Shown here: in pieces, positions 13,459 to 64,000 of the stretch | Layout: every line of letters begins with the position of its first letter | Position numbering within the stretch: position 1 is the stretch's first letter | Source: Chloroflexota bacterium | GTDB lineage: Bacteria > Chloroflexota > Dehalococcoidia > DSTF01 > RBG-16-68-14 | Assembly (NCBI GenBank): GCA_029262675.1 | Contig: JAJCYW010000010.1 | Coordinates: forward strand, 129,166-193,165 | Reading direction: 5' to 3' | DNA: 64,000 nt | Made by a program: the position numbers and the translations under genes | The notes under the pieces: generated by a model | The model's input: only the letters and a program-made list of their open reading frames with translations | Told to the model about the DNA's origin: nothing | Database searches by the model: none

Positions 13459-13467
13459 GAGATGGGG

Positions 13468-15372: not shown

Positions 15373-15398
15373 CTGCGGGGTGGGCGTCCCTTCCGCGT

Positions 15399-18887: not shown

Positions 18888-18912
18888 GGATCACAGGTTG
18901 TAGCGTGTGGCG

Positions 18913-20013: not shown

Positions 20014-20073
20014 CGTAGTTGGAGTGTACGCCGCGGGCGCTGGCCTGCCAACTGGGGCTACGGCGCTACGCCG

Positions 20074-22634: not shown

Positions 22635-22635
22635 G

Positions 22636-23904: not shown

Positions 23905-24001
23905 CGTTCGCCTCCAGCGCAGTGTAGCCGCAGGATGGTAGGGGGGCAACGGTCTCGACACTGTGCGGAGCGGTCTGTTACCATTCGGCGTACTCCTAGG
24001 T

Positions 24002-43549: not shown

Positions 43550-43639
43550 TGGCGGAGAGGGTGGGATTCGAACCCACGAGGGCTTGCACCCTACACGCTT
43601 TCCAGGCGTGCCTGTTCGGCCGCTCCAGCACCTCTCCGC
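43550..43639 (-). tRNA. tRNA-Ser (anticodon GGA)
   Basis: Minus-strand read GCGGAGAGGTGCTGGAGCGGCCGAACAGGCACGCCTGGAAAGCGTGT-long variable arm-GGGTTCGAATCCCACCCTCTCCGCCA. Anticodon loop CTGGAAA, long variable arm. Confidence 0.85.
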
Positions 43640-43815: not shown

Positions 43816-43903
43816 TGGCGGAGAGGGTGGGATTCGAACCCACGAGGGCTTGCACCCTACTGCTTTTCGAGAGCAGCACCTTCAACCACTCGGACACCTC
43901 TCC
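43816..43903 (-). tRNA. tRNA-Ser (anticodon CGA)
   Basis: Minus-strand read GGAGAGGTGTCCGAGTGGTTGAAGGTGCTGCTCTCGAAAAGCAG-variable arm-GGGTTCGAATCCCACCCTCTCCGCCA. Anticodon loop CTCGAAA. Confidence 0.85.
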
Positions 43904-43989: not shown

Positions 43990-44688
43990 CTACGGCGCGG
44001 CGTGGGCGCCGACGTTGCCGTCCGCGTCGTCGTACAGGCGCTCCGCCCGGACGACGACCCGATCGTCGTACTGGCCGACGCTGGGGTCAAACGACCCGCC
44101 GCAGGTGATTAGCGTGATGATCTCGTTTGGTGTTCTGCCGACGATCTCCTGGATCGGCGCGTCGCTCGCCTTGTACTGGTCTCTGCGGAAAACGCCGTAC
44201 TCGTACACCGTTCCGTCCTGTAGCCGGACCTCTATGACGTCTCCCGGCTCCAGGTCCTTCAGGTTCCAGAATACGGCCGCGCCGTAGTTGTAGTAGTCCA
44301 CGTGGCCTGAAAACACGGCGTTGCTGCCGAACCCGGGCCGGGAGCTGAAGTCGTACCAGGCGACGTTGAGCGGGCCATCCGGCGTCTCCATGACGCCGTT
44401 GTCATCGACGCTCAGCACGACGATCGGCGCGTCGACGCCGAAGCGCGGAATCGCCAGTCCGGCTATCTGCGCCTCGCTCGGCGGCGGGGCCTCCGCCGTC
44501 GGAGTCGGCTGCGGCGTCAGTATGCGGTCAAGGCTCGTGTCAAAAGTGGTTGCCGTTTCCGGGCCAGCGTAGCCTTCATCTCCGGTCAGTTGGAAGACGA
44601 AGAGAACGGCCGCCGCTATCAACGACAGCACGCCCGCACCCATGACGATCAGGGAGAGCCGGTTCCAGTTTGCGCTATCTATCTTCAT
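43990..44688 (-). CDS. Sortase-family transpeptidase (class undetermined)
   Basis: N-terminal TM anchor; catalytic His (FSGHVDYY), TLITCGG Cys motif, downstream conserved Arg (VVVRAERL). Confidence 0.75.
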   Translation of the reverse strand: MKIDSANWNRLSLIVMGAGVLSLIAAAVLFVFQLTGDEGYAGPETATTFDTSLDRILTPQPTPTAEAPPPSEAQIAGLAIPRFGVDAPIVVLSVDDNGVMETPDGPLNVAWYDFSSRPGFGSNAVFSGHVDYYNYGAAVFWNLKDLEPGDVIEVRLQDGTVYEYGVFRRDQYKASDAPIQEIVGRTPNEIITLITCGGSFDPSVGQYDDRVVVRAERLYDDADGNVGAHAAP

Positions 44689-44861: not shown

Positions 44862-45989
44862 GTGAAAACTATGCCACGTAACCGTCCCCAATCTGTCTGG
44901 CTGCCCCGGTTGATGGCCGCTGGTGCGCTGTTGGCGACTCTCAGCCTAGTCGCCGCCGTCGCCTGTGGCGATAGCGGTAATGGCGACGACGATAGCTTTA
45001 CTGCGATTCGCGAGCAGGCGCCGCCGGATTCGATCGCGTTCGGCGCGCAGGAGGGCGAGGGCGTCCCGCCGAACGGCGGGACGTACGGCCTCTACCTCGT
45101 GCGGCCGGACGGCACGTTCTTGCGTTCGATCCAGATCGAGACCGCGCCAGTCTCGTCGCCCGTCTGGGCACCCACCGGCGACCGCATCGCCTACAACTTC
45201 GGCGCGGACGCGGCGCGGCTCACCGCCACGCTTCGTATCTACGACTTCGCTTCGCAGGCCGCGACGACGGTCAGCGACAGCGCCCTCACCAGCGACGTCG
45301 GCCCGGCGATGAGCTGGTCCGCGGACGGCGGCCGCCTCGCGTTCGCCGAGGAAGGCGGCCGGATCCGCATCTACGATGCCGACCGCGCAGTGCTGGAAGA
45401 CGCCGGCGGCGCCACCGGTCTGACCCCCGCCTGGCGGCCCGGCGCAGACGAACTGGCGATCGCGCGCGTCAGCGGCAATGACTCCGGCAGCAGCCTGAGC
45501 GTCCTGGCCGCCGATGGCGACGACGAGCGAGAACTGTTGGAGCGCGAGGCCGCCGACGCCGCGCCCGTCTGGTCACCGGACGGCGAGTCGCTAGCGTTCC
45601 AGACGCTTCGTCCGGACGTGCCCGGTAGGTTTGTGCTCTCCGTGCTCCAGATCGATAACGGCTCGCTTACGGAGGTCGGCCCGGGGTCGGGCGCGGCGTG
45701 GTCACCGGACGGTGCATTCCTCACTTACTACACGCTCGTGTCGGACGCCTCACCGGACATCGATATCTTCGTCGCCCCCGCCGGCGGCGGCCCGCCGCGA
45801 GCGTTTGCCGGCCCCGCCACGCTGGACGTCGCGCCGAGCTGGTCGCCGGACGGCGGGCGTATCGTCTACCTGGCGCGGGCCGACCGCACGACGGCCTTCA
45901 TCTGCTTGGTGGCGCTCGAGGGCGAGGACCGCGATTGCTTGGACCTGCCCGGCCTGCTGCCGTCTCAGCCTGCCTGGTCGCCGCACTAG
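44862..45989 (+). CDS. TolB-like beta-propeller lipoprotein (PD40/WD40-like repeats)
   Basis: Lipobox LVAAVACGDSG; repeated (W/Y)SPDG motifs (WAPTGDRIAY, WSADGGRLAF, WSPDGESLAF, WSPDGAFLTY, WSPDGGRIVY). Confidence 0.7.
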   Translation: MKTMPRNRPQSVWLPRLMAAGALLATLSLVAAVACGDSGNGDDDSFTAIREQAPPDSIAFGAQEGEGVPPNGGTYGLYLVRPDGTFLRSIQIETAPVSSPVWAPTGDRIAYNFGADAARLTATLRIYDFASQAATTVSDSALTSDVGPAMSWSADGGRLAFAEEGGRIRIYDADRAVLEDAGGATGLTPAWRPGADELAIARVSGNDSGSSLSVLAADGDDERELLEREAADAAPVWSPDGESLAFQTLRPDVPGRFVLSVLQIDNGSLTEVGPGSGAAWSPDGAFLTYYTLVSDASPDIDIFVAPAGGGPPRAFAGPATLDVAPSWSPDGGRIVYLARADRTTAFICLVALEGEDRDCLDLPGLLPSQPAWSPH

Positions 45990-46079: not shown

Positions 46080-48941
46080 CTAGTTCAGCCCCAGCCAGCT
46101 CCAGAACACGCCTCCACTGGAGGCGCCTCCTCCGGAGCTCGATCCGGCCGGGAAGCCAGAGATCAGCCCGGAAGCCTTCTGCAGAATCAACAGCGAGTCG
46201 AACGGGTCGATATTGCCGTCGTCGTTGACGTCAGCCGCGGCCGGGAACGGCACGGTTGACAGGCCGATCACCTCGAACAGGACCCAGAGCGAGTCGATCG
46301 GGTTGATGACGCCGTCGCCGTTCACGTCGCCCAGCTCGGGCGTCCCGGGCAGCGGGCTTGTCGAGACGCCGAAGTTCCACGAGCTGGCCGTCGAGGTCAG
46401 CACCGTGATCTGGATGTCGCCCGCGGCGGGGCCGATCAGCAGGTTCCGCTTGGAGATGCAGGGGTCAGGCTGGGCCTTGGTCGCCGGGCCGTTGCAGTTC
46501 GGCACCAGCACGCCGCCCTTGAACACCGGCAGCGTCTGCGCCGTCGTTCCCTGCGGGATGATGGACGAATCGAGCGTGAAGACGATGATGAGCGGCAGTT
46601 GCGACGTGCCGGACGGCGCGCTGATGTTCACCTGCTGTCCGAACAGCGTGAAGCCGCTGGGGGCGGGCTGGATGATGACCTTCTCAAGGATAGTCACCAC
46701 ACCGCCGACGGGCAGCGTAACGCTCGTTTCGAGCGGGTCTTCGGGGATCGCGCCGTCGCCCTCCTTGTCGGTCGTCACCAGGCCGCCGGGCGGCACTTCC
46801 TCCGACTGCGAATCCGGCAGCGCCGGCGTGTTGGTCGGCGTCGACGTTGGCGTTTCGGTCGGCGTTGGCGTGTCCGTCGGCACGGGCGTGTTCGTGGCCG
46901 TCGGCGTGAAGGTGTTGGTCACCGTCGGGCAGACATCGGGGCAGGGCGTGTGCGTCGGCGTCGGCGACTCCAGCGGCGTGGCCGTCGGCGTCGGCGTCAC
47001 CGTCGGCGCCGGCGCGTCGATGCAGTTGATGCGCAGCAAGTCCACGTACGGGAGTGTCGCGGTGTTATCGCCGAGGATGCCGTCACCGTCGCCGTCATAG
47101 ACGTGTTCGCCCAGCGGGTCCATGACAATCAACTCGATTTCGGGCAGGACGTCCCCAGCGTTGACCGTGTCGTAGAACGCGGAACCCGTGAGCCGCTGGG
47201 TGAAGATTGGGGTGCCATCGATGGGGTTCTTCGCGTACCCCGTCAGGAGCACGGGGACTTGCTGCACGGCCGTGCAGTGGACCTGCATCCGGACGAGCGT
47301 GCCGACCCGGTTCGACGCCGGGAACGGCGGTTCGTCGTCGGTCTTGGCCACGTGCCGCCGTTCCAACGGCTGGGCGGGGGATACGGTTGTCATGTTTGTA
47401 AACGCCTCGCAGACGAAGCCCGCCACGGCATCTGGCCGCCAGACGATCTCGTCAAAGCAGGAGCGCTCCTGGTGCTTGAGTCCGTTGAAGAAGACCTCGG
47501 TTTGGAACCCGCCGTAGCCGTCCGGGATCGAGTTCGCCTCGATCAGGATCTCGAACTTGCCGGACTCCGGGTCCTCCTCGGTGAACGGCGCCGTACACTT
47601 CTGAGGCTTTTCCGCCGTATCGCACGTGATGATGCCCGGGCCGTATGCGGTGAGCGAAAGCTCCGGCGGCGGCACCTCGCAGTTGATCGTGAGCACGTCG
47701 GCGTGCGGGCTGTTGACGGCGGCCACCTCGATCGTGCCGTCGTCCTCGTCGAAGAAGGCCGCGCCGTGCAGGTTCGCGATCGATAGCCTCTTCAGCGTTA
47801 CGGTCTGCGCGCCCGCCTGCGTGCAGTGCAGGTCGAGCTCGACGATGGTGCCCCTGTGCGTGCTGTTGGGGAACGTCGGCGCGGCGGCGCTGCGCGCCGT
47901 GTGGCGGATGAACTGGCCGAAGTTTTGGCCTGTGCACTCGTCGACGCTGGAGAGTTGCGGCCAGACGACCTCATCGTCGCAGTCCGGGCGCTGATTCCAG
48001 GCCAGGCCGCTGCTGAGCTGGACCTCTGTCTGGAAGCCGCCGTAGCCGTCCGGCGTCGGGATCGTGTTGACGTTGACCGCGACCGTGAACTCCCCCTGCT
48101 TGGTCTGGCCGGGGTAGTAGTCCGCTGTGCACGTCGCCGGCTTGGGCAGCGGCGTCGGCGTTGGCGTGCCGGCGCCGGTGTCTTCGACGCAGTCGAGTTC
48201 CGGCGCGTCCAGCGACATGATCGGGTTGGGCTGCGGCGTCGGCGTCGGCGTGTCGGTTGGCGTGTTCGTCGCCGTTGCCGTATTGGTAACTGTGGGCGTG
48301 TTCGAGGCCGTTGGCGTGGCGGTGGGGGTGTTGGTCGGTTCTGGCATCGGTGTGTGGGTGGGCAAGGTTCCGCCCGCCCCGCAGTTGACGATTATAAAAC
48401 TGCCAGGAACGGCGATATTGCCCAGGGCTGCGTCCGCGTATGCGGCGCCGCTGGTACCGGCGGGCGGGTCATTGAACGACACCAAAGTGATCTTATGTGA
48501 GCTGTCGCCCGACGTGCAGTTGAATTCGAAGGTGAACAGGTCGCCCTTGTAGAAGCTCGGGGGCGGGCTGATAAGTCCGGATAGGCAGCCACGGCCAGTG
48601 GTCGTGGCCGTGGACTGAGAAACGTCTGCGGCGTTGCATTCAGGCCACACAGTGGTGGACTGCTTGAACGTCAGGCCGGTAGCGCCGAAATCCAGGAACG
48701 CTTGCGTGCCGACGTAACCGTTCGTTGTCGGAACGGCGTCGCCGGTCACGGTGACCGTGAAGGCGCCGTTGAGGGCGACATTGTTAGAGGCGACGCTCAT
48801 GCTCATCGCCGCGCCGTCCACGGTGGACTGCGCAGTGTTGACCTGCTGGGCTACGATGAGAAGGACCGCCGCGACGGCTGCCATCAAGAGGAGTCCCGCA
48901 ACCGCCATCCGTCCGGATTCCTGCTGCATTTGAGTTAGCAT
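46080..48941 (-). CDS. Secreted modular protein A: signal/TM + 3 copies of the recurring N-domain family + PT-rich linkers + C-terminal dockerin
   Basis: ATG 48941 with GAGAAGGAAGG RBS. Copy 1 (GAAMSMSV...GYVGTQAFLDFG...VWPEC...GCLSGLISPP...AGTSGAAYAD) is nearly identical to the N-domain of the gene G protein; two diverged copies (DGYGGFQTEV...VVWPQL / ...VWRPD). Linkers PTNTPTATPTASNTPT, TPTPTATPLESPTPTHTP. Dockerin GDVNGDGVINPIDSLWVLFEV...DVNDDGNIDPFDSLLILQ. Confidence 0.7.
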   Translation of the reverse strand: MLTQMQQESGRMAVAGLLLMAAVAAVLLIVAQQVNTAQSTVDGAAMSMSVASNNVALNGAFTVTVTGDAVPTTNGYVGTQAFLDFGATGLTFKQSTTVWPECNAADVSQSTATTTGRGCLSGLISPPPSFYKGDLFTFEFNCTSGDSSHKITLVSFNDPPAGTSGAAYADAALGNIAVPGSFIIVNCGAGGTLPTHTPMPEPTNTPTATPTASNTPTVTNTATATNTPTDTPTPTPQPNPIMSLDAPELDCVEDTGAGTPTPTPLPKPATCTADYYPGQTKQGEFTVAVNVNTIPTPDGYGGFQTEVQLSSGLAWNQRPDCDDEVVWPQLSSVDECTGQNFGQFIRHTARSAAAPTFPNSTHRGTIVELDLHCTQAGAQTVTLKRLSIANLHGAAFFDEDDGTIEVAAVNSPHADVLTINCEVPPPELSLTAYGPGIITCDTAEKPQKCTAPFTEEDPESGKFEILIEANSIPDGYGGFQTEVFFNGLKHQERSCFDEIVWRPDAVAGFVCEAFTNMTTVSPAQPLERRHVAKTDDEPPFPASNRVGTLVRMQVHCTAVQQVPVLLTGYAKNPIDGTPIFTQRLTGSAFYDTVNAGDVLPEIELIVMDPLGEHVYDGDGDGILGDNTATLPYVDLLRINCIDAPAPTVTPTPTATPLESPTPTHTPCPDVCPTVTNTFTPTATNTPVPTDTPTPTETPTSTPTNTPALPDSQSEEVPPGGLVTTDKEGDGAIPEDPLETSVTLPVGGVVTILEKVIIQPAPSGFTLFGQQVNISAPSGTSQLPLIIVFTLDSSIIPQGTTAQTLPVFKGGVLVPNCNGPATKAQPDPCISKRNLLIGPAAGDIQITVLTSTASSWNFGVSTSPLPGTPELGDVNGDGVINPIDSLWVLFEVIGLSTVPFPAAADVNDDGNIDPFDSLLILQKASGLISGFPAGSSSGGGASSGGVFWSWLGLN

Positions 48942-49361
48942 CTGCGGACCTTCCTTCTCTGCCCCACCCCAACTGTTGCCCGCATCGGCAGGGGAGCCGT
49001 GTCCGGCAGTTCCCTACATACGAGACGGCGGCCGGGCGCGTCAGCCACCCCCACCCGGTCTCTGCGGCGAACGCGTTGGCCCGGCGATTCCCTCGCCGGC
49101 CGGCCCGACAGTCTTACTATAGTCCTACTATCGGCATGCTGCATCGCGGGCCAATTACTCAGCCGATTCGTACCCGCAGCTTCCGGTTAGTTTACCATAC
49201 GGATTATCGTATCCCTAGGGTGTTAAATCCCTTAGGCGTGGTCCTCAAAACCCTTAGAATCTAGAGGAATCCCCCTAGTTCCGTAGCTTGCGGGAACCGC
49301 TAGGCCTGCGCGGCAGCCTCCCCGGCGGGATCCGGGCGCGGGGCGGGCTCCCTACGCCATC

Positions 49362-50366
49362 TCAGCGGCAGATGAAGAGGTTCGCCTCTATTTGAAGGAT
49401 CAGCAGCGCGTCGATCGGCCCGGTGCGGCCATCGCCGTTCAGGTCGTCGCTGAACGGAACGAAGTCGATGACGCCCGTCGTCAGCCAGAGCACCCAGAGG
49501 GCGTCCTGGCTGTTGACCAGGCCGTTGCCGTCGATATCGCCGCAGGGCCGCGGCCGAGGCGTAGCGGTTGCGGGATCGAGCGTCGGCGTCGCGGTCACGG
49601 CCGGCGTCGGCGTTGGCGTCGTAGTCGGGGTCGGCGTTGCCGTGGGCGTAGGGGTGGGCGTCAGCGTGGGGCCGCCGGGCGTAATCGTCGGCAGCGGGGT
49701 GGGCGTCGGCGGCTCGCCGCAGATGATCGTGATGTTCGTCAGCTTGGGGATAGTGTCAACTTGAGAGTCGTTGACAAAGATCGTAATCTGTGATCCGCTG
49801 GTTCCCTGAGACGTGTTCGGAGGAATGACGCCATCATACGGCAACTGCACGACATCGCTGATGGTGTCCGTGCTGGAGCAGGTCATGCTGATGTGCACGA
49901 AGTCCCCGGCGAATGTGCTGATCGGCTGCGGCGGAAGTAATCCTGAGAGGCAGCCGTGGCCCACGTTGTAGATTGGCTGACCTGGCCCCGCCAGGTTGTC
50001 GAACTCCGGCCGCTGGGCGGTTTGCCCTACACAGTCCGGCCACACGATCTCATCGGCAGCTAGGCCGGTTCTGTTGTACGTCAGGTGTTCGCCGTAGCGG
50101 ACGAACGACTGCACGGCTACATACCCGCTGCTCGGGGCAGTGACGATCTTCACGGCCAGCGTGAACGTCTCGTCGAGCTCTAGCTGGCAGGTGCCCTCGC
50201 AGTCGCCGTCGGCCGCGATCACCGTGAGCGCCATCTCCGGGCCGCCGGACGTGGCGGACGTGGACGGCAGTTGGCCGCTGAGGAAGAGCGCGGCGGCGGC
50301 CAGCGCCACCACGGCAACGCCCGCGGCGGCGATGCGTCCGGCCCGTGGCCGCGATCGCGTGCTCAT
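49362..50366 (-). CDS. Secreted protein B: signal + N-domain + PT linker + dockerin
   Basis: SGGPEMALTV...GYVAVQSFVRYG...IVWPDC...HGCLSGLLPPQP...; TPTPTPTATPTPTTTPTPTP; dockerin CGDIDGNGLVNSQDALWVLW...DLNGDGRTGPIDALLILQ. Confidence 0.7.
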   Translation of the reverse strand: MSTRSRPRAGRIAAAGVAVVALAAAALFLSGQLPSTSATSGGPEMALTVIAADGDCEGTCQLELDETFTLAVKIVTAPSSGYVAVQSFVRYGEHLTYNRTGLAADEIVWPDCVGQTAQRPEFDNLAGPGQPIYNVGHGCLSGLLPPQPISTFAGDFVHISMTCSSTDTISDVVQLPYDGVIPPNTSQGTSGSQITIFVNDSQVDTIPKLTNITIICGEPPTPTPLPTITPGGPTLTPTPTPTATPTPTTTPTPTPAVTATPTLDPATATPRPRPCGDIDGNGLVNSQDALWVLWLTTGVIDFVPFSDDLNGDGRTGPIDALLILQIEANLFICR

Positions 50367-50565
50367 CTGGTGGCGGCTCCTGAATCGGCTGCTAGTCGAG
50401 TCATCCGAATTGCAGTATATCGCGTGCGTGCCGGTTGAGTCGTCATCCGCCGCTGACAGGAGAAGGGCTCGCTAGCGGCGGATGCAGTAAGGGCGTCCCG
50501 ACCATGTCGGGACGCCCCCCTGTTTAGTGCTCGTTGTTGCGTCTACGTACCTTCCTGAGCGCCCG

Positions 50566-51534
50566 TTACGCGGGTGGCACGCAGAAATCGCTGCCGTTGC
50601 CGGCCACGATCTGGAGGATCAACGCGGCGTCGATCGAGTTGACGACTCGGTCGCCGTCGATATCTCCGATCAGATCGAGAAGGCTGTCCTGGTTGTTGTC
50701 CTTGAGCGGTAGCAACGCCTCGACGAGCCCGGCGTCGAACCACAGCACCCAGAGCGCGTCCAGCGTGCTGATTTCACCATCGCGGTTGACGTCGCCGCAG
50801 ACAAAGTCCGGAACCGGCGTCGCTGTCGGCGGTACCGGCGTGTCCGTCGCCGGAGCCGGCGTGTCTGTCGGGCCAGGCGTGGCTGTCGGGCCGGATGTCG
50901 TCGGCGTGGCCTCGACAGGCGCCGTCGTTGGCGTTTCTGGCGGCGCGCCCGCACCGCAGGTGATGGAGAGGGTGCTCACCTTGGCGGGTATGACTTCGGC
51001 TCCGGCGGAGAAACCGGTGCCGCTGGTACCGGCGACAGGGTCGCCTGCCGGCAGCAGCGCTACGTCCGTCGTACTGGGGCCCGCGGAGCACGTGATTGAT
51101 ACCTCTGCGAAGCTGCCGGTGGCGGTGCTGAGCGGCAGCGGCGGAATCAGGCCAGTGAGGCAGCCGTGGTTGACGGTGGTCGGCCCGCCCGGCTGGTCGT
51201 GCAAGGCCACCGCGTCGGTGCAGTCCGGCCAGAGGATTTCGTCAGCAGCGGCCACCGCTGCGAGGTCGTAGGACAGGTCGCTGCCGAAGTCGATGAACGA
51301 CTGGGCGCCGACGTAGCCGCCTGCCAGCCCCTCGATGATCTCGACCGTGAGCGTAAACTTCGCGCTGTTATCGAACGTGCAGTCTGCGGCGCAGCCTTCG
51401 GCCGTCAGCCGCATCTCCGGGCCGCTACTGGCGGCCGAGGTGGTCTGAATCTGGTCGGCGAGGAAGAATGCCGTCGCCACGAGGGCGAGCACAGCCGCCA
51501 GCCCGAAGCCCAGATATGTTCTCTTTAGTTGCAT
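50566..51534 (-). CDS. Secreted protein C: signal + N-domain + PT linker + dockerin
   Basis: ATG 51534 (MQLKRTYLGF...) with AAGGAGG 7 nt upstream. SSGPEMRLTA...GYVGAQSFIDFG...ILWPDC...HGCLTGLIPPLP; dockerin CGDVNRDGEISTLDALWVLW...DIDGDRVVNSIDAALILQ. Confidence 0.7.
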   Translation of the reverse strand: MQLKRTYLGFGLAAVLALVATAFFLADQIQTTSAASSGPEMRLTAEGCAADCTFDNSAKFTLTVEIIEGLAGGYVGAQSFIDFGSDLSYDLAAVAAADEILWPDCTDAVALHDQPGGPTTVNHGCLTGLIPPLPLSTATGSFAEVSITCSAGPSTTDVALLPAGDPVAGTSGTGFSAGAEVIPAKVSTLSITCGAGAPPETPTTAPVEATPTTSGPTATPGPTDTPAPATDTPVPPTATPVPDFVCGDVNRDGEISTLDALWVLWFDAGLVEALLPLKDNNQDSLLDLIGDIDGDRVVNSIDAALILQIVAGNGSDFCVPPA

Positions 51535-51570
51535 CGTGTAACCTCCTTGCATATCTCGCTTCGAGACGCG

Positions 51571-52362
51571 CTACTGTACGCGGCGGCCTGCGATTACGCG
51601 CAGGCCGAACGTGGAGAGCCCCGTCGCGCTGATCGCCAGCAGAGCTGCGATTACTGCCCACATGCCTGTTCCGAACCCGCTGTCGCCGGTGGCGCTGAAT
51701 GTACCCGTGTCCGGCAGACCAGTCGGACCAGTCGGCCCGGGCGGTGGCGCCTCGCCACAGTTGACGATTACGGAGTCCGTCTTGGTCGGCACGTCTACTT
51801 GTGTATCGCCCTCATAGAAGGCGAACGCGGCGCCGCTGGTCCGGCCGGCGGATAGCGGCATCAGGCGCACGGCCGTGTGCGAGTAGGTGTCTGAGCACTC
51901 CAGGTCGATTTCAAGCAGCGTGCCCGTGTAGCTGCTCTCAGGGAGCGGCGGGAGCAGGCCCGTGAGGCCGCCATGGGTGATCTCGCCTGCCCCTACATCG
52001 CCTCTGATGATTACATCTTCGGATACTGCGTCGGGCCACAGGAACTCATCCGCCGGTTCCGGCCGCGCGACGTAAGTCAGGTCCAGGCCGTAGTCGATGA
52101 ACGTTTGTACCAGAACGTAGCCCTCGATCGGCGCCGTGACGACGTCGACCGTGACCGTTATCTCGCCGCCCAGATCCACGTCACACTCGCCGCCGCTGCA
52201 ATCGACGCCGGGGCCGGATACGCTGATGGCCATCTCCGGACCGATGCCGGCAGCGCTCGCGGTGGGTGCGGCGGTCTGGCCCCATGCCAGCACCAGCATC
52301 GCCATGAGCGGGATACCCAACAGCGCGGTGCTGCGTAGCCCTAATCGTTTCCGCACTTCCAT
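51571..52362 (-). CDS. Surface protein D: signal + N-domain + C-terminal LPDTG sortase sorting signal, no dockerin
   Basis: ATG 52362 (MEVRKRLGL...) with GGAAGGGAG RBS. GIGPEMAISV...GYVLVQTFIDYG...FLWPDA...HGGLTGLLPPLP. C-terminus GLPDTGTFSATGDSGFGTGMWAVIAALLAISATGLSTFGLRVIAGRRVQ. Confidence 0.7.
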   Translation of the reverse strand: MEVRKRLGLRSTALLGIPLMAMLVLAWGQTAAPTASAAGIGPEMAISVSGPGVDCSGGECDVDLGGEITVTVDVVTAPIEGYVLVQTFIDYGLDLTYVARPEPADEFLWPDAVSEDVIIRGDVGAGEITHGGLTGLLPPLPESSYTGTLLEIDLECSDTYSHTAVRLMPLSAGRTSGAAFAFYEGDTQVDVPTKTDSVIVNCGEAPPPGPTGPTGLPDTGTFSATGDSGFGTGMWAVIAALLAISATGLSTFGLRVIAGRRVQ

Positions 52363-52705
52363 GTTAGCTCCCTTCCTTCTACTCTTCCCTAAGTCTCGCG
52401 GCGTCCCTGGCCGGCGCACCCCTAAGCGGGGCCGCTTCGGCTGCGATCCGAAAGGTCGTGTGGCCCCCGCCACATCTTCCCCATAAGCACTGCCCCATGC
52501 CCAAACGTACCGGCGGAAGGGGCAGTAGCTGCGCCTAGCCTAGCGTATCCGGGGAGTTAATACTAGCCCCTCCGCGCAAGCCGGCCAGACGCTTCCACGT
52601 GGCTTCGGCATTATCATACTCGATTCGCGCAACTGCGCAAGGTGCGATTCTGGCTTACATGTCCGTGCTCTCATCTGTCGCACCAATGCGTCTCATTGAT
52701 GACGG

Positions 52706-52740
52706 CCGGAGAGCCGCCCTCGATTGGCGGCTCTCCCCGG
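52706..52740. terminator. Hairpin CCGGAGAGCCGCC-ctcgatt-GGCGGCTCTCCCCGG 3' of gene E
   Basis: Read directly, 24 nt downstream of the E stop on the minus strand. No clear U-run. Confidence 0.35.
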
Positions 52741-52763
52741 CGTTTCAGATAGATCTCCGGGTG

Positions 52764-53549
52764 TTAATTCACGCACGGCACCTGATACTGCGTGATGGCG
52801 CCCAGGATGTCAAGGAGAAGGTCGATTGCGCCGTCGTCGTTGATGTCGAAGGCCGGATCGTACGGCGGGGCTCCACTAGGAGCGTAGTGCTGAATGATGC
52901 CCAGGATGTCGTTCAGCAGGTCGACGATGCCGTCTCCGTTTGTATCGGCGCAGCCCATGAACAGGAGGGTTGATGACAGGACGCTTACTCCAGGGATCTG
53001 CCCGATGTCATCGGGGTCCGCCGGCGTGTTGATCAGGTACGAACCAGTCAGGTCCAGCGCGGTTCCCGGACCCATGATCGAGCCCGGATCGAGCGTCAGC
53101 TTCGCCAGGAGGCCGGTGCCTTGCACGCCGAAGGGAGGCACGTGGTCGATGGTAACGCAGTCCACGAAGACGTGGTTGGCCTCTATCGTCGGTGAAGGAC
53201 AGGATGGGCTTCGGCCGGATCCGGCAAGCCACGTGGTGTACGGCACCCAGGTTACGGCCGTCGCCAGCGAATCGTCGAATGCGATGTCGACGCGGAAGCC
53301 GGAGGCGCCTCCGGGCTCCTTCACGCTGACGGCCCAGACATAGATGTCTCGGTCAATGCCATCCGGGGAGACGACGATAGAGGACGCGCGGACGGGACTT
53401 ACGTCGGAGTAGCTCAACAAGATCTGCGTGGTCCCCGCACTTTCCGCGGGGTTGCTATCTTGAGCGATCCCCACTGTGGCGAAGACGAGCGCTCCAACCA
53501 GCAATCCGATCTTCGCGAATCCTCGCAATGGCTTTGTCAGTCGGTTCAC
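52764..53549 (-). CDS. Secreted adaptor-like protein E: signal + cohesin-like module + dockerin
   Basis: GTG 53549 (VNRLTKPLRGFAKIGLLVGALVFATV...) with AGGAGG 7 nt upstream. Cohesin-like hallmarks GASGFRVDIAFDDSLATAVTW and GTGLLAKLTLDPG. Dockerin CADTNGDGIVDLLNDILGII...DINDDGAIDLLLDILGAI. Confidence 0.6.
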   Translation of the reverse strand: MNRLTKPLRGFAKIGLLVGALVFATVGIAQDSNPAESAGTTQILLSYSDVSPVRASSIVVSPDGIDRDIYVWAVSVKEPGGASGFRVDIAFDDSLATAVTWVPYTTWLAGSGRSPSCPSPTIEANHVFVDCVTIDHVPPFGVQGTGLLAKLTLDPGSIMGPGTALDLTGSYLINTPADPDDIGQIPGVSVLSSTLLFMGCADTNGDGIVDLLNDILGIIQHYAPSGAPPYDPAFDINDDGAIDLLLDILGAITQYQVPCVN

Positions 53550-53607
53550 GGCTTGTACCTCCTGCTTCCGAATGCGTTGCATACGGGAACTGGCTCCCCC
53601 CGAAGCT

Positions 53608-54549
53608 CTATGATTCTCCCCTGTGCATGATGCGCCGCCGCAAGAAGCCTGCCGCCAGTCCCGCTGCCGTGAGGCCGCCAAGGCCAACGAGGATCCAGAG
53701 TGTGACAGCGCCGTTTGCGTTCCCGTCGTCATCGGGGGCGCTGATGCTCGGTGTAGGTGTGCCGATTTCAGAAACGGCCGTGTCTGTCGCTGTCGGCGTG
53801 CCATCCGCCGCGGGAGTCGTCGGCGCCGGCGAGGCGCCCGCAGTCGGCGACTGCACGGTTGCCGGTTCGATTGTTGTCGTGGCGTTCGTTCCTGGCGTGT
53901 CTGTTGCGACCTGCGGCGAAGACGTAGCCGTGGGCGGTGCGTTTCCGGTCACGCGGACCAGGCCGCCGACGACGTCCAGTGGTACCGGGTCTCCCAGCGG
54001 ACCCGAGAGTTGAGACGTCAGCAACAGCGGGCTGGAGCCCGCGCCCAGCGGCGTGAACGTCACGCTGGCAAGCGTGAGTTCGCCCTGCAGCCCCGGGATC
54101 GAATCGCTGGAAGACAGGCAGCCGAAGCGGACGCTGCCCGGCTCTACGCGCGGTGGCAGGCATTGGAACGGGCGGCTACTGGCTGCCAGCCCCGGGCCGG
54201 GCTCGAGGTGGTCCACAGCGACGACGGTCTCATCGAATTCGATGATGAACTCGAACGCGGCCATGCCGATCGATTCAACTTCGCGGTCCGGAACGGTATC
54301 GCGGTTGTCGTCGTAGAAGATCGCCCCGTGGTGGTCCAGGTCCTCCAGGACGATGAAGACGCCAAACGCACCGCTGTCCGCGTCGACGCTGGAGATGGCC
54401 GGCAGCAGCCGGACCGTTCCGTCTGCGGACTGCGCGCTGGTGGACTTAACTGCGATCGTCATAGCAATCAGCATAAGCGATGCCAGAAGCATCCAGATCA
54501 AGAGCGTGCGAGGCCGCGCGCGAGGCATCAGCGGGGCGGTCCGACCCAA
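53608..54549 (-). CDS. Membrane-anchored cohesin-like protein F: signal + cohesin-like module + PT linker + C-terminal TM anchor
   Basis: TTG 54549 with GGGAGGAAAC RBS. Cohesin hallmarks GMAAFEFIIEFDETVVAV and GLQGELTLASVTFTPLGAGSSPL. C-terminus TLWILVGLGGLTAAGLAAGFLRRRIMHRGES; no LPXTG. Confidence 0.6.
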   Translation of the reverse strand: MGRTAPLMPRARPRTLLIWMLLASLMLIAMTIAVKSTSAQSADGTVRLLPAISSVDADSGAFGVFIVLEDLDHHGAIFYDDNRDTVPDREVESIGMAAFEFIIEFDETVVAVDHLEPGPGLAASSRPFQCLPPRVEPGSVRFGCLSSSDSIPGLQGELTLASVTFTPLGAGSSPLLLTSQLSGPLGDPVPLDVVGGLVRVTGNAPPTATSSPQVATDTPGTNATTTIEPATVQSPTAGASPAPTTPAADGTPTATDTAVSEIGTPTPSISAPDDDGNANGAVTLWILVGLGGLTAAGLAAGFLRRRIMHRGES

Positions 54550-54734
54550 ACGTTTCCTCCCATCTACGAAAACGATGCGGACGTGGCGAATGTAACGCCC
54601 GTGCTCCTCTTTCTAGCATGTTCCGGCCCCTGTGCAATGCCATTTCCCGCAGTCATTGCTGCGGATCTTCAGCCCTACCCCCAATTCGGCGTAGGACTCA
54701 AGGCCCAAAGCATCTGTAATCTGCGAATAGATAA

Positions 54735-54777
54735 GGGCGGGGAAGCCGGAACTATGAGTCCGGTGCTCCCCCGCCCC
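54735..54777. terminator. GC-rich hairpin GGGCGGGGAAGCCGGA...TCCGGTGCTCCCCCGCCCC 3' of gene G
   Basis: Read directly, ~90 nt downstream of the G stop on the minus strand; followed on that strand by TTATCTATT. Confidence 0.4.
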
Positions 54778-54868
54778 ATCTTGGTCACTCCGTGACCTGC
54801 TGTATTCGCTTCTTTCCCCGCAACCGCTCTAGCTGGCTACGGAAAGAACTTGATGATCTAAAACCCCC

Positions 54869-56329
54869 TTAGGCCTTCGGGTTCACCGGCGGCTGCGGCG
54901 GGTGCGGCACTGCGCATGTGCTTCCGAAGCGGCCAAAGACGAACTGCAGGTCGTTGATGTCGATGTCGGCATCTGACTGCGTTCCGGAGGGCTCCAGGTT
55001 CATGAAGTCCTTGTAGATCAGGCTACCCTTCTCAACGCCCCAACGGAACGAGATCGCCTGCGCGTCTAGCGCGTCGACCGAACAGTCGGGCTCCACGTCA
55101 CCTTCGAGGTAGCGGAACGTAATGTCCGCGTCGTCGCAGGCGAAGATCGGGATCGCCTCACCTTGCTCGTCACCCAGGTCACAGTTCACGTTGTTGATCT
55201 GGACGACGTTACCGTTTTCCTGGTTGGGCTTCATCGGAGAGTAGATCTCCGGCTGCGGATAGACATCGACGGTGGCCAGCGAGGCCAGGTTGTCGATGCG
55301 GTCTACTTCAGCCGCCTTACCCACGGTGACACAACCAATGCGGGCAACGCCCTCAAGCTGCGGCTTGCTAGCCGAGTCTTGGATGATGCAGATCGCACCC
55401 GCGGCCTGCCAGTCGGCGCCCGTGGTCAGGTCAACACAGACCTTCTTGTTGTCGTAGAGAACCTCGAACTCAAAGGCCGCGAGTACCTGGAATCCGGTCA
55501 CGCCCTTCGGGTCCGGGGAGACAACCGCCTGGCTCAGCTCTTCGCTGAGGCTACCGATGTTCGTGCCAGAGAGGCAGTCTACCGGCGGAACCTTTGAACC
55601 CTGTCGCGTCAGGAAGACGTTCTGCAGGGCCGGGATCTTGGACATTCGCGGCACCGGCGGCGGCGTGTTCGTCGGCGTCGATGTCGGAGTCGGCGTGAAT
55701 GTCGGAGTCGGCGTTGCTGTGTTCGCGTTCGTGCAGTGTACGGTTACCGAACTGCCAGGAACGGCGATGTTGCCAGTTACAGCGTCAGCAAATGCCGCGC
55801 CGCTGGTACCGGCGTTCGGGCCGCCGAGCGTCTCCAGATCAATCTGGTGGCCCTGGGACTTGCCCGTTGTGCAGGTAAAGTCGAACTGGAACAGCGCACC
55901 CTTGATAACGCTGATTGGCGGACTGATCAGTCCGGTCAGACAACCACGGCCAACGGTTGTGGCCGTCAGTGTTCCAAGGTCTGCCGCGGCGCAGTCTCCC
56001 CATATGGTGGAGGAGCCCGTTGCCGTCAGACCAGTGGCGCCAAAGAACAGGAAGGCCTGCGCACCGACGTAACCGTTCGTAATCGGAACGGCGTCACCGC
56101 TGACGGTGACGCTAAAGGCGCTACCAATTGGGACACAAACGTCGCCCGGGGCCTTTGCGCCGGGGCAGGTCTGGCCGCCGGAGACGGCCATGCTCATGGC
56201 AGCGCCGTCTGTGGCTGCCTCTGCAGTGTCGGTGCTGTGGCCCATGCTGAACACCATGACCGCTAGCGCGATCGCCAGAAGCGGCAGGCTCAGCAAGCCC
56301 AGTACCTTAATTCGTTGTGTTCTATTCAC
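54869..56329 (-). CDS. Secreted protein G: signal + N-domain + PT linker + cohesin-like module + divergent (class-2) dockerin-like module
   Basis: GTG 56329 (MNRTQRIKVLGLL...) with AGGAGG 8 nt upstream. N-domain TDGAAMSMAVSGG...GYVGAQAFLFFG...GCLTGLISPP. Cohesin-like GVTGFQVLAAFEFEVLYDNKKVCV...ARIGCVTVG. C-terminal DVEPDCSVDALDAQAISFRWGV...DADIDINDLQFVFGRFGSTC. Confidence 0.65.
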   Translation of the reverse strand: MNRTQRIKVLGLLSLPLLAIALAVMVFSMGHSTDTAEAATDGAAMSMAVSGGQTCPGAKAPGDVCVPIGSAFSVTVSGDAVPITNGYVGAQAFLFFGATGLTATGSSTIWGDCAAADLGTLTATTVGRGCLTGLISPPISVIKGALFQFDFTCTTGKSQGHQIDLETLGGPNAGTSGAAFADAVTGNIAVPGSSVTVHCTNANTATPTPTFTPTPTSTPTNTPPPVPRMSKIPALQNVFLTRQGSKVPPVDCLSGTNIGSLSEELSQAVVSPDPKGVTGFQVLAAFEFEVLYDNKKVCVDLTTGADWQAAGAICIIQDSASKPQLEGVARIGCVTVGKAAEVDRIDNLASLATVDVYPQPEIYSPMKPNQENGNVVQINNVNCDLGDEQGEAIPIFACDDADITFRYLEGDVEPDCSVDALDAQAISFRWGVEKGSLIYKDFMNLEPSGTQSDADIDINDLQFVFGRFGSTCAVPHPPQPPVNPKA

Positions 56330-56701
56330 GAAGTTGACCTCCTACCGAGAGTAGATAATATCTAGGTTACTCTGTGGTTTGCTTGTTCTGGTGTAGTACA
56401 TCCCCTCCTTTCTCGGCCCTACACGGGGTAGGAGCCAAATACAGCGGTGTAACCAAATTGGCAACCAACCGGGCGGGGGTCGGTGATTGGCATGTAATAC
56501 CGCTTGCGCGGCGGACTATGGCGGGGAACCTGTGGAATCTTCTTCCACCAGCTGATACTTGTATATCACGGTGTCCCAGCTTTGTCAAGCGTTCCGAGCG
56601 TACCTAATTTCGATCCTCTGCAGAACCGGTTGGAGCGACACCTGACGTATGGAGCGGTGCATTCCCGGCATCATGACAACGACAACGCGCGAGACTCGCG
56701 A

Positions 56702-58900
56702 TCATAACAACAGCGAGCAGTCCTGCCCGTGGTGCTGAATGACCGGCAGGACGTCGAAGAGCAGGCTGACCGTGCCGTCACCGTCGATATCGTAGAGCAC
56801 GTCGAATCCGGGATCTCCCGTTACCTCGCCGTGGTGTTGCACGACCGTCAGGATGTCGAAGAGCAGGTCGACCACGAGGTCGCCGGTAACGTCGAAGCAG
56901 GCCTTCAGGTCTGTTGTTTCGGAGGCGTCGTTGCCTACTGGGTTCTCATCCGGGTCCGAGGCAGACGCCGTGACGTTGTTCGTAATCGTTTGGTCCACCA
57001 TCAGTGTTGGCGCGCGCACATCCAGCGTGATGATCACCTGGCTGCTTACGAGGACCTCGTCGATGGTGCACTCGACCGTATCGACCGGTACCGCGACGCA
57101 AACGGCTCCCGTCGCGCCGACAAAGGTGGCCGGACGGTTGAACTTGGCGAAGTTGAAGACGGTAGCCGTCGGCAACGTGTCCGTCACGACCACGTCCAGC
57201 GCGTCGCCGAGCCCGATGTTGTCGACCGTGATCGTGTAGCTGTAGTAGCCGAGTCGCAGCACCGGATCGGCCAAATCCACCTTGGTTACGACGAGGTCCG
57301 GCGGCGGCGCCACAACCGGCGTGTACGCGATAGCCGAGTTGTTGCCGGAGTGGACAAAGAGCTCGTTGTCGGCCGAAACGACCGCAGTGTTCTTCATCAT
57401 CAGGCTCTGCGTCACCACCGGAGAGAGCATCACGATCTCGACGAATGCATCGCTGCCCGCCGGAATGTTCCCCAGGCTGCAGGTGACGACCCCGGCGACT
57501 GGCGCGCCGCAGCCGGGGCTTGCCGACACGAAGGCACCGTCCAACGGAAGCGTGTCCACAATGACGACGTTTTCTGCCTCTTGCGGACCGCTGTTTGCGG
57601 CCGTCAGCGTGTACGTGACGTTCTCGTTGCCGTTCACGAATGACGGATCGCCCACTTTGGTCAGATCCACGTCTGACCGTGGTGCGAGGACTACCGTCTC
57701 TTCGATATCCGTATTATTACCGGTGTTCGCAAAAGGCTCGTTGCTCGCGCTTACAGTGACCGTGTTCGAGACCAGCGTGTCCAATATGGGCGATGGCGCC
57801 GTCACGGTGATATCGATGACTACCTGGTCGGACGGGTTCATCGGGTTGGTGACCGTGCAGATCACGACGCCTAGATTCTCGCCGCAGTTGGCGCCCGCGG
57901 AGACCGCGGACACAAACGACGAACCGGGCGGTAACGCGTCGGACATCGTAACGTCCTCGGCCGTTTGCAGGCCCACGCTATCGATGGTGACGCGGTACGT
58001 GAAAGTGGCCGTCGCGTCGACGGGGTCCGTCAGGTCGACCTTCGTCACCTTGACGTCAGGCCGCTCGCTCGGCGGCGGCAGCGGCGTCGGGGTGTCGGTC
58101 GGCGTCGGCGAGACCGTCGGCGTGTGTGTAGCCGGAATCGGCGTCACCGTCGGTGTCGGCGTCGGGCCCAGGCAGTGGACGACGAGATCTGAAAGCTTCG
58201 GAATGACTGTTGTTGTCCCATCCTGGAACGCGGTGCCGCTGGTGCCCGCCAACGGGTCGTTTTCCGGCAGGAGCTGGACATTGGTGGTGGAAGAAGACGA
58301 GGAGCACGTGAATGATAGCTCCAAGATGGTGCCGATGAAGAAGCTCACCGGCTGCGGGGGGATTAGGCCCGTGAGTCCGCCGTGGGATACGACGTGCGGC
58401 GCGACTTGGGCCTTGAATACCACCGAAGGGTCTAGGTCTGGCCAGACCATCTCGTCGGCCGCGGCCTGGGAGTTGTAGGTGAGGTTGGTCGTGACGCAAT
58501 CGGTGTCGAAGCGGTCGGCGCCATCGCCGCCGCCGTTGTCGATTGTGTCACTGCAGGTATTGAGACCGGCGCCGTCTTCGCTCGCGGCGGGATCGTAGAT
58601 GCCGTAATCGATGAACGTCTGCACCGCAATGTACCCCGGCACTGGCGTATCGATGACATTAGCCGTCAGCGTGAAGGTGTCGCCTGCCGTGACGCAGTCG
58701 TCGTTCGGGTCATAGCCGCCCGGGCATGCTGTGCCGCCCGTAGTAACCGCCATAGAGATCTCCGGTCCGGTGCTGGCGGCCTCTGCGCGCTGCTCGCCGC
58801 CGCTATCCCAGACCAGGAAGACCGCGACGGCGATGAGCGCGATGATTGGCAGCACCAAGAGCCGTGTTGCCATCCTTGGACTAATGTTGCCGATCTTCAT
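56702..58900 (-). CDS. Secreted protein H: signal + N-domain + 3 DUF11-like conserved repeat domains + dockerin
   Basis: ATG 58900 with GGAGGAGG RBS. N-domain STGPEISMAV...GYIAVQTFIDYG...MVWPDL...HGGLTGLIPPQP. Three ~120-aa repeats (DVKVTKVDLTDPVDATATFTYRVTI.., DVDLTKVGDPSF..VTYTLTAANSGPQEAENVVIVDTLP.., DLVVTKVDLADPV..YSYTITVDNIGLGDALDVVVTDTLP). Dockerin CFDVTGDLVVDLLFDILTVV...DIDGDGTVSLLFDVLPVI. Confidence 0.7.
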   Translation of the reverse strand: MKIGNISPRMATRLLVLPIIALIAVAVFLVWDSGGEQRAEAASTGPEISMAVTTGGTACPGGYDPNDDCVTAGDTFTLTANVIDTPVPGYIAVQTFIDYGIYDPAASEDGAGLNTCSDTIDNGGGDGADRFDTDCVTTNLTYNSQAAADEMVWPDLDPSVVFKAQVAPHVVSHGGLTGLIPPQPVSFFIGTILELSFTCSSSSSTTNVQLLPENDPLAGTSGTAFQDGTTTVIPKLSDLVVHCLGPTPTPTVTPIPATHTPTVSPTPTDTPTPLPPPSERPDVKVTKVDLTDPVDATATFTYRVTIDSVGLQTAEDVTMSDALPPGSSFVSAVSAGANCGENLGVVICTVTNPMNPSDQVVIDITVTAPSPILDTLVSNTVTVSASNEPFANTGNNTDIEETVVLAPRSDVDLTKVGDPSFVNGNENVTYTLTAANSGPQEAENVVIVDTLPLDGAFVSASPGCGAPVAGVVTCSLGNIPAGSDAFVEIVMLSPVVTQSLMMKNTAVVSADNELFVHSGNNSAIAYTPVVAPPPDLVVTKVDLADPVLRLGYYSYTITVDNIGLGDALDVVVTDTLPTATVFNFAKFNRPATFVGATGAVCVAVPVDTVECTIDEVLVSSQVIITLDVRAPTLMVDQTITNNVTASASDPDENPVGNDASETTDLKACFDVTGDLVVDLLFDILTVVQHHGEVTGDPGFDVLYDIDGDGTVSLLFDVLPVIQHHGQDCSLLL

Positions 58901-58956
58901 GTTGTAGCCTCCTCCGGAAAACCACTACATCTTCATAAACGTTTGCCGGTTGCGTA

Positions 58957-63800: not shown

Positions 63801-63995
63801 CGCGCCGCACGTGATCGGCGTTGGTGTAGCCGTGGGCGTTGACGTTGGCCCGCCAGGCGTCGGCGTTGAGGTCGGTGTCAATGTCGGGCATGTAGTCGTG
63901 CCCAAGACGGTCGCGGTGCCATTGTGCAGCGAGCGCGGGATCGGCGTGCCGAGCGTATCGGCGATGTCTGCGTTTGCCAGGATCAGCGTGCTCAC
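60861..63995 (-). CDS. Scaffoldin-like surface protein J (N-terminus beyond window end): >=3 cohesin-like modules + class-2 dockerin-like module + long PT-rich region + LPDTG sortase signal
   Basis: Three cohesin hallmarks (LGAFQFTLRYDPLVVSA..GVLAFITLRGEAAGISLLTF; LGAFQFMLSYSPSVILS..GVIATATFFALAEGLSPLHL; LGGFELHVAYDNNTVSL..GTFAFARITVTP) separated by PTPT linkers. DINVDCAVNVIDHQMVAGRFGV...DGDIDISDLQTVYGRTGSTC. C-terminus GLPDTGGADGSSGDVLPTTLAIAGLAGGAVLLAWSQLLWWRRRQG. ORF still open at 63995. Confidence 0.65.
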   Translation of the reverse strand: MSTLILANADIADTLGTPIPRSLHNGTATVLGTTTCPTLTPTSTPTPGGPTSTPTATPTPITCGAAVVFILCPQPQSQTVNLSSETILEVAVANAPELGAFQFTLRYDPLVVSAPSVSPGPFLSSTSRIVTCLVPTAGPGFIQYTCVSIEPTPAGPTGTGVLAFITLRGEAAGISLLTFEDVIFTDVPGLAYPTAALGVGEITVVEGATPTPTLSPTATLSPTPTVTPTPCPGGICPTPTVTPTPTITPTPTDTPIPPPTATFTPTPTSTTPAGPVTIRIDPVSQNAPVGTIVTADIVVDNVADLGAFQFMLSYSPSVILSQSLVVGPFLGSTGRNVVCLPPIVGVSDVEFSCNTIGTTPPGANGSGVIATATFFALAEGLSPLHLSGPIIVDVPGAAQLPIVTQDGVVIVIPPATPTPVATPTPTPTVTPTATPGIPSLNSSSLTTTLRTVAITAHKSVAYPGVTGPAGVQSEQDIVSVIKEPAESNLFLGNGSLVLYERAQNVPEGSGLGGFELHVAYDNNTVSLDIDASPFLQELEGTDRTATCLENRTEGAVRFGCVTTGVDPGPSGTFAFARITVTPLARIPIRPAPNNGIEVILDDVTANTRLVGALEDGIPVSFVGDAKVIVRALESDINVDCAVNVIDHQMVAGRFGVSEGSTLYQERYDLEPAIRPDGDIDISDLQTVYGRTGSTCAQPWGIQDPPSKSTETPTPSVTPEATATPGPTGETPSSTPTASPSPQPTATVTTAPATATAAATATATATPGGAGAGSPTPDPTVTSTATATPALTATDTPAPSTTPEPSATPDGSGTPVPTSDASPTATHTWTPQPTWTQEPTWTPVPTWTAEPTWTPAIAAIPTPTPTTPPPPTATVIPLPTFGTPAVPPTSTPAPANTATPVPAIPPTDTPAPGAPPSTATPAFIPPTDTPAPGAPPSTATPASPTGSATPIQAPVPTSTPTLVRDSGPILKTPVAGLPDTGGADGSSGDVLPTTLAIAGLAGGAVLLAWSQLLWWRRRQGVTPAPFQPRFRPAPSRRQEDTDGPR

Positions 63996-64000
63996 GCCGC

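Follow-up and report, generated by a model that had tools for sequence, protein, structure and literature searches.

The stretch of DNA analysed here, referred to as the window, comprises 64,000 nucleotides from a contig of a Chloroflexota bacterium (JAJCYW010000010.1, positions 129,166 to 193,165; assembly GCA_029262675.1). It contains the gene for a sortase, which is separated by 1.4 kb, and by one divergently oriented gene, from the end of a cluster of genes for cohesin- and dockerin-type proteins (Table 1). Two of the cluster proteins, D and J, end with an LPDTG motif, a spacer, a hydrophobic helix and a basic tail, and are probably recognised by this sortase.

Table 1. Coordinates of the features discussed in the text, in positions of the window
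Feature	Coordinates	Strand	Description
Sortase	43990..44688	-	232 aa; Pfam PF04203, NCBIfam class F score, conserved triad, AlphaFold2/Foldseek
PD40/TolB/Tricorn-like beta-propeller protein	44862..45989	+	Pfam PD40 54 bits; between sortase and cluster
Dockerin-bearing partners	46080..60720	-	46080-48941, 49362-50366, 50566-51552, 52764-53804, 54869-56329, 56702-58900, 58957-60720; range also holds D and F
Protein D	51571..52473	-	Signal peptide, one divergent cohesin-fold module (predicted), short Pro/Gly linker, LPDTG signal
D sorting signal	51574..51717	-	LPDTG 51717-51703, spacer 51702-51664, helix 51663-51601, tail 51600-51574
Protein F	53608..54549	-	Cohesin-like module, Pro/Thr linker, C-terminal helix, RRR tail
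Protein J	60861..63995	-	At least 1,044 aa; three alignable cohesins, dockerin-like segment, Pro/Thr-rich linker, LPDTG signal
J sorting signal	60864..61070	-	LPDTG 61070-61056, spacer 61055-61017, helix 61016-60954, tail 60953-60864

The sortase and its genomic position

The sortase reading frame at 43990-44688 is exactly the one given in the initial annotation. Its GC content at the third codon position is 0.84, which marks it as the real frame, and the plus-strand open reading frames (ORFs) that overlap it were rejected as spurious by codon-position GC. The protein matches the Pfam family Sortase (PF04203) over residues 78-217 with 83.8 bits (cutoff 26.6), and this catalytic domain is preceded by an N-terminal membrane helix (residues 6-35, approximately) and a Pro/Thr/Ala-rich linker (approximately 36-77). 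The catalytic triad, consisting of His129 (in FSGH), Cys196 (in TLITC) and Arg214, is unchanged in all 25 aligned homologues. The AlphaFold2 model, with a mean predicted local distance difference test (pLDDT) score of 70 and about 80-90 in the catalytic core, comprises the membrane helix and a sortase barrel, connected by a disordered linker of about 40 residues, and Foldseek retrieved 116 sortase chains from the PDB at E<=1e-3, the best at about 1e-9. The identification as a sortase was thus borne out.

The initial annotation had proposed that the enzyme be classified by hidden Markov models. The best class was F (NCBIfam NF033748), with 114.8 bits, an E value of 2.8e-33 and 149 of the 155 profile positions aligned, but the score stayed below the cutoff of 166 bits. 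The models for the classes E (39.4 bits), D (33.5-36 bits) and C (26 bits) followed, so that class F led by 75 bits. Class F also ranked first in 25 of 25 aligned homologues, none of which reached a better E value than the sortase of the window. More than 1,000 clusters of homologues were found, and the named ones are "class F sortase" in the NCBI labels, from Chloroflexota or Dehalococcoidia metagenome-assembled genomes (MAGs); the six genome loci that could be recovered with sortase homologues all belong to Chloroflexota MAGs. Structural comparison was less informative. The Foldseek scores were about equal for sortases of the classes A, C, D and E, a search of the PDB with the single sequence gave no match, a profile of 25 sequences gave only weak matches scattered over the same four classes, and no solved class F structure was among the PDB matches. 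Neither the profile search nor the Foldseek scores discriminate between the classes, and therefore structure gave no class assignment. Judged by its profile scores, the enzyme is a sortase that is class-F-like but sub-threshold, and not a verified member of class F.

Class F sortases have one characterised member, SrtF of Propionibacterium acnes, which accepts LPXTG (PMC8225981), and their physiological role was described as unknown in 2026 (PMC13251363). The sortase of the window resembles this class in its best-scoring profile and in the combination of a single N-terminal membrane anchor with a catalytic domain, and LPXTG-type substrates would be expected (PMC8225981); it differs in its score below the class cutoff and in its origin from Chloroflexota rather than Actinobacteria.

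The sortase gene lies between the cohesin/dockerin cluster and a conserved housekeeping block, which encodes two small proteins, MnmA, RsfS, NDK, TsaB, TsaE, ThiL, a phosphoesterase and a 2-hydroxyacid dehydrogenase. Dockerin or cohesin genes adjoin the sortase in the window and in three of the other loci (L007, L008, L009). The gene between sortase and cluster, which encodes the PD40-type protein with a lipoprotein-like N-terminus (..LVAAVAC), is found in the same position and divergent orientation relative to the sortase in L001, L007 and L009, where L001 contributes the arrangement of sortase, PD40 protein and large protein from its ORF layout only. L008 has the same flanks as the window without the PD40 gene. 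A second sortase paralogue is located near the first one in L007 (10967-11626) and in L010 (1645-2367); the window has one sortase gene.

Sorting signals with an extended spacer

The initial annotation had proposed a search for further substrates with LPxTG and a spacer. It was carried out over the whole window, as a six-frame scan for LPxTG at most 70 residues from the stop, and yielded the tails of D (300 aa) and J (1,044 aa) and no others. Protein D starts with what looks by eye like a typical signal peptide (MEVRKRLGLRSTALLGIPLMAMLVLAWG..ASA); the start given in the database is Met38 (52362), corresponding to 263 aa. Its C-terminus reads ...GLPDTG, followed by the 13-residue spacer TFSATGDSGFGTG, the 21-residue helix MWAVIAALLAISATGLSTFGL and the basic tail RVIAGRRVQ. 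The reading frame of J is open at base 64000, and thus its N-terminus lies beyond the edge of the window. It ends with ...GLPDTG, a spacer of 12-13 residues (GADGSSGDVLPTT), a helix of 21 residues (LAIAGLAGGAVLLAWSQLLWW) and RRRQG plus 25 residues. Both spacers are rich in Gly, Ser, Thr and Asp. The order of motif, spacer, helix and basic tail is therefore as initially annotated, but the spacers have 12-13 residues instead of the 14-17 that had been given.

With the amino acid frequencies of the cluster, 0.5 occurrences of LPxTG would be expected by chance in 5,423 residues, and 0.003 in a stretch of 30 residues in front of a helix. Two were observed, both in the pre-helix position, and a chance origin of the LPDTG motifs of D and J is very unlikely.

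The conservation of the D signal points in the same direction. In 11 orthologues of D with overall identities of 63-77%, the residues L, P, T and G are the same throughout and the x position is D, S or P, whereas the Pro-rich linker upstream of the motif varies in both length and sequence. All of them have kept a spacer of 11-13 residues composed of Thr, Gly, Ser, Asp and Asn, the helix and an Arg-rich tail, and within the spacer the pattern T[FY]G[TSA][AG]D.. is conserved. The closest orthologue, the database protein P0122 (77% identity), is labelled "Pirellulales bacterium" and stems from a contig of 1.7 kb; this label is probably a binning error, everything else pointing to Chloroflexota. 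For J, three proteins were retrieved in the search for orthologues, but they are shorter or truncated and have uninformative C-termini.

LPxTG-like tails with long spacers were also found less than 10 kb from the sortase, on the cluster side, in six loci, namely (motif and spacer length) L002 (LPPTG, 10), L003 (LPPSG, 12), L006 (LPSSG, 11; PPNTG, 13), L008 (LPPTG, 12), L009 (LPSNG, 11) and L010 (LPRAG, 11; PPVTG, 14). The housekeeping side of the sortase was devoid of such tails in the loci examined. On the level of the protein family, a D profile matched 727 clusters at E<=1e-3 among 1.84 billion representatives, and the tails of the best 149 of these 727 were analysed. They included 12 single-module proteins (268-328 aa), from independent clusters at 50% identity, with the LPxTG-like motifs LPPTG (six times), LPDTG, LPGTG, LPRTG, LPPSG, FPPTG and FPSSG; a thirteenth match, APEAG, was discounted as false. 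The spacers had 11-33 residues, with a median of about 14 over all 13 motif matches, and the 12 LPxTG-like tails share the helix end ...GLGxFGW followed by RxARGRQ. None of 33 tails examined had a spacer of fewer than 9 residues.

Classical Gram-positive signals, as described by PF00746 and TIGR01167, have the same parts at the extreme C-terminus, LPxTG, hydrophobic helix and basic tail, but differ in their dimensions. Spacers were measured with one algorithm in both groups. In 21 Chloroflexota tails the median spacer was 11 residues (range 9-14) and the median distance from the Gly of the motif to the first basic residue was 32 (range 28-36), compared with 4-9 and 22-25 residues, respectively, in six classical signals (protein A, M6, FnbA, ClfA, InlA and Cna). 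Another difference is the cytoplasmic tail of J, which comprises 30 Arg/Pro-rich residues after the helix and is unusually long.

The influence of the spacer on detection by the curated anchor models was examined with control and engineered tails. The control tails of protein A and M6 scored 38.6 and 57.8 bits with PF00746 and 25.9 and 30.9 bits with TIGR01167. The addition of eight Gly/Ser/Asp residues to the spacer of protein A lowered its scores to 23.3 (PF00746) and 16.7 bits (TIGR01167), and LPETG was no longer aligned. Conversely, trimming the spacer of D to 4 aa led to 19.7 bits with TIGR01167 (cutoff 15.9) and 18.6 bits with PF00746 (cutoff 20). In a finer series of trims, remaining spacers of 2-8 aa gave 9.5-15.1 bits and those of at least 10 aa gave no match, so that only one engineered variant of D exceeded the TIGR01167 cutoff. 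Because matches were obtained only with spacers of at most 8 residues, the length of the spacer is the main cause of the failure to annotate these signals, and because most of the trimmed variants stayed below the cutoff, composition contributes too. The tails also matched GPS-CTERM, PVV-CTERM and GVDTG-CTERM weakly and below the cutoffs, which was not counted as membership. The claim that the spacer is longer than in the classical arrangement thus holds by the Gly-to-basic distances, by the trimmed profile matches and by the recurrence in relatives, and the comparison indicates that the long distance between motif and helix is a trait of the lineage as a whole.

It is possible, though the less probable alternative, that the long spacer has no functional meaning and is a drift-prone low-complexity linker in a genome of high GC content. 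This would be in accordance with its variation between 9 and 33 residues among relatives and with its low-complexity composition of Gly, Ser, Asp, Thr and Asn. However, the lack of any spacer below 9 residues in the 33 tails suggests that a minimum length is maintained, and T[FY]G[TSA][AG]D.. is preserved in the D orthologues. Thus, the spacer seems to be a flexible tether of low complexity, apparently with a minimum length, and not a fixed ruler.

A different conserved tail occurs in 20 of the best 149 D-type representatives. It reads C-V-x-P-x-x-V-G-G-[VI]-[SA]-L-[DG]-x-x-L-[RA], is followed after about 15-20 residues by a helix and an Arg-rich tail, and is present in the database proteins P0142, P0143, P0188, P0205, P0208, P0214, P0226, P0229, P0230, P0232, P0236 and others, all from outside the window. 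The model GVDTG_CTERM of NCBIfam matched it below the cutoff (21.8 versus 29 bits), and no description was found in the literature searched. From its sequence pattern it looks like a separate sorting signal.

Cohesin and dockerin modules in the cluster

Protein J is a multi-cohesin scaffoldin. One of its cohesins is detected by Pfam (PF00963, 40.4 bits, cutoff 24.1) and two further copies can be aligned with it, and in addition a dockerin-like segment lies in the interior of the protein, which also has a stalk rich in Pro, Thr and Ala with a length of about 400 residues (about 61071-62270). The stalk includes near-duplicated segments, with IPPTDTPAPGAPPSTATPA occurring twice.

Protein D consists of a single module, which had no match in Pfam or NCBIfam. 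In its AlphaFold2 model the domain has a pLDDT of about 80, and the top of the Foldseek list consisted almost entirely of cohesins, the best match being the ScaC cohesin of R. flavefaciens (5lxv, E value 1.8e-6, template modelling score 0.65); the ScaE cohesin was also listed. The module is thus predicted to be a cohesin fold. A comparison of the D family with the cohesins of J and F using hhalign detected no sequence relationship (probability 0.1), and therefore the assignment of D comes from its predicted fold alone.

Protein F, the cohesin-like module of which is 27% identical to the J cohesins and has invariant positions in common with them, was initially annotated as being anchored differently. 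It ends with a helix and an RRR tail, its C-terminus contains no LPxTG-like motif, and it apparently stays tethered to the membrane. The sequence SAPDDDG in F was considered as a decayed LPDTG and was rejected as unsupported.

Seven dockerin-bearing partners are encoded in the same cluster. Dockerin_1 of Pfam was matched in five of them, in part below the gathering threshold, and was not matched in 54869-56329 and 56702-58900. Five of the seven (953, 334, 328, 486 and 732 aa) begin with a D-type cohesin-fold module that is 26-37% identical to D. The C-terminal dockerin-like modules of 52764-53804 and 56702-58900 resemble the NCBIfam model NF041520, "flexitail domain-containing putative surface protein" (36.6 and 20.1 bits, cutoff 40), which is matched with 133.7 bits by the database protein P0133, a relative of D. 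Flexitail appears to be a variant type of dockerin that is paired with a cohesin-fold module. In addition to its cohesin-fold head and its flexitail/dockerin-like end, the 732-aa protein (56702-58900) has three DUF11-type repeats (TIGR01451, 76 bits).

In the ten cluster proteins, Pfam and NCBIfam detected dockerin, cohesin, DUF11 and flexitail domains only and no catalytic domain; a surface-layer homology (SLH) domain was not found with Pfam either. Because no enzymes were detected, the cluster is not a cellulosome in the enzymatic sense, although other parts of the genome could encode such enzymes.

Anchoring model, alternatives and neighbouring genes

Taking the conserved motifs, the sortase and their proximity together, we estimate a probability of roughly 65% that the membrane-anchored, class-F-like sortase recognises the LPDTG motifs of the two secreted cohesin-type proteins D and J. 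By analogy with characterised sortases, both proteins would be exported via the Sec pathway, and the C-terminal helix and the basic tail would retain the precursors in the membrane, with the spacer holding LPDTG off the membrane surface. Cys196 of the sortase would cut the Thr-Gly bond of the motif, and the proteins would be transferred to an amine of the envelope, most likely that of the peptidoglycan precursor lipid II. The anchored cohesins could then dock the neighbouring dockerin-bearing, cohesin-headed proteins, and the outcome would be a non-enzymatic cohesin-dockerin network on the cell surface.

The proposed anchoring is a lineage-specific variant of the anchoring known from Ruminococcus, and not a new mechanism. 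The initial annotation had drawn a parallel to the SLH-dependent anchoring of clostridial scaffoldins with different chemistry. This parallel is not new, since both Ruminococcus flavefaciens and R. champanellensis anchor their cohesin scaffoldins by sortase as the established mode (PMC11557425). The SLH scaffoldins SdbA, OlpB and Orf2p of Acetivibrio (Clostridium) thermocellum are likewise cohesin proteins that fix a dockerin assembly to the cell surface; in contrast to the attachment proposed here, their binding is non-covalent and directed to a secondary cell-wall polymer. The closest system is that of the ScaE type, in which a cohesin protein with an LPXTG-type signal is attached by a sortase and serves as a surface dock for dockerin proteins (PMC11557425). 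Protein D has the same composition of one cohesin and a sorting signal, and ScaC and ScaE cohesins are among its structural matches. The present system differs in its origin from the Chloroflexota and not the Firmicutes, in its class-F-like enzyme, in a sorting signal that has about 9 residues more, in the cohesin of D, which is undetectable by sequence, and in the dockerin proteins of the cluster, which revealed neither glycoside hydrolases nor enzymes of other kinds. In the literature searched, neither sortase substrates nor a cohesin-dockerin system of this kind are described for Chloroflexota.

Several observations weigh against this interpretation. The native tails of D and J did not match PF00746 or TIGR01167 even at E<=10, the sortase did not reach the class F cutoff, and the AlphaFold2 models of the sortase and of D have only moderate confidence (mean pLDDT 70 and 65, respectively). 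The 64-kb window contains no peptidoglycan genes, and the architecture of the Chloroflexota envelope is debated (PMC8871954). The adjacency of sortase and cluster, which had been pointed out initially, was confirmed as a distance of 1.4 kb, though the sortase is a transcription unit of its own and is not co-transcribed with the cluster. Because of this separate transcription and of the conserved junction with the housekeeping block, the adjacency could be positional and not functional. In addition, L010 has the sortase and the housekeeping side, but no dockerin cluster.

The last points are also those on which an alternative can be built, in which the enzyme is a general housekeeping sortase at a conserved junction, D and J are two of many substrates, and the adjacency has no specific functional meaning. 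The sortase may indeed be general rather than dedicated to the cluster, because its position at the edge of the housekeeping block (MnmA to dehydrogenase) is conserved in the window, L008, L009 and L010. Its separate transcription unit would fit, as would the upstream neighbours in L010, which are Big_1 and M10 peptidase proteins with the LPRAG and PPVTG tails and not dockerin proteins. On the other hand, in five of the six loci with sufficient context, the flank of the sortase opposite the housekeeping block is occupied by the dockerin cluster. A general sortase is therefore the less probable explanation, albeit one to be taken seriously, and it would be compatible with the anchoring proposed above, in that D and J would be anchored by the enzyme in either case.

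It appears unlikely that the sortase links D and J to a protein or to a polymer other than peptidoglycan, for example in the manner of pilins, to an S-layer or to a secondary cell-wall glycopolymer. Proteins can be sortase acceptors (PMC3208642), class F sortases have no known physiological role (PMC13251363), the window contains a surface-polysaccharide cluster, and two loci have the second sortase paralogue beside the first. However, neither pilin-like domains nor pilin-motif lysines were identified, D is a single cohesin-fold module, and nothing in the analysis indicates a specific other acceptor. Somewhat less likely still is that the tails are membrane anchors only and that LPDTG stays unprocessed, for example for want of accessible peptidoglycan: in F and about 40 of the 149 family representatives, the C-terminal helix with its basic tail is not accompanied by any LPxTG, the curated LPXTG models leave the native tails unmatched, and peptidoglycan genes are missing from the window, but a mere linker would not keep a pentapeptide with L, P, T and G strictly fixed in all orthologues amid drifting flanks, and a sortase that appears catalytically intact is conserved nearby.

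The recognition of D and J by the sortase is therefore the preferred explanation, and its conserved pairing with cohesin-type LPxTG proteins provides a concrete set of candidate substrates for class F sortases. Sortase-anchored cohesin-dockerin assemblies would be extended from Firmicutes of the rumen and gut to an uncultured lineage of Chloroflexota, and a cluster without recognisable enzymes hints at a structural or adhesive rather than a cellulolytic role. Because the extended spacing hides such substrates from the curated LPXTG-anchor profiles, the surface proteomes of Chloroflexota are probably under-annotated. The proposed anchoring also bears on the debate about the Chloroflexota envelope, because sortase anchoring implies an accessible acceptor in the wall.

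A more far-reaching and rather speculative extension would be a system specific for Chloroflexota that arose by co-evolution between a divergent class-F-type sortase and an extended signal, made up of LPxTG, a flexible Gly/Ser/Asp tether of at least 9-10 residues, the helix end ...GLGxFGW and an Arg-rich tail, and that covalently anchors the base units of a self-assembling, non-enzymatic cohesin-dockerin lattice. If this were true, it would represent the first physiological substrate set for class F-type sortases, and a class of sortase substrates that is systematically missed by the current LPXTG models.

Some further genes of the window should be mentioned. A protein of 308 aa (27183-28109, minus strand) with a Dockerin_1 match of 26.5 bits is encoded about 18 kb outside the main cluster. 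The surface-polysaccharide biosynthesis cluster (8506-23961, minus strand) encodes a UDP-GlcNAc 2-epimerase, a UDP-sugar dehydrogenase, two DegT-type aminotransferases, a Polysacc_synt_2 dehydratase, an initiating sugar transferase, glycosyltransferases of the families GT2 and GT4 and a flippase, and judging from this gene content it could make a wall-associated glycopolymer. Directly downstream of the sortase gene, two tRNA-Ser genes with the anticodons GGA and CGA are located on the same strand (43550-43637 and 43816-43903).

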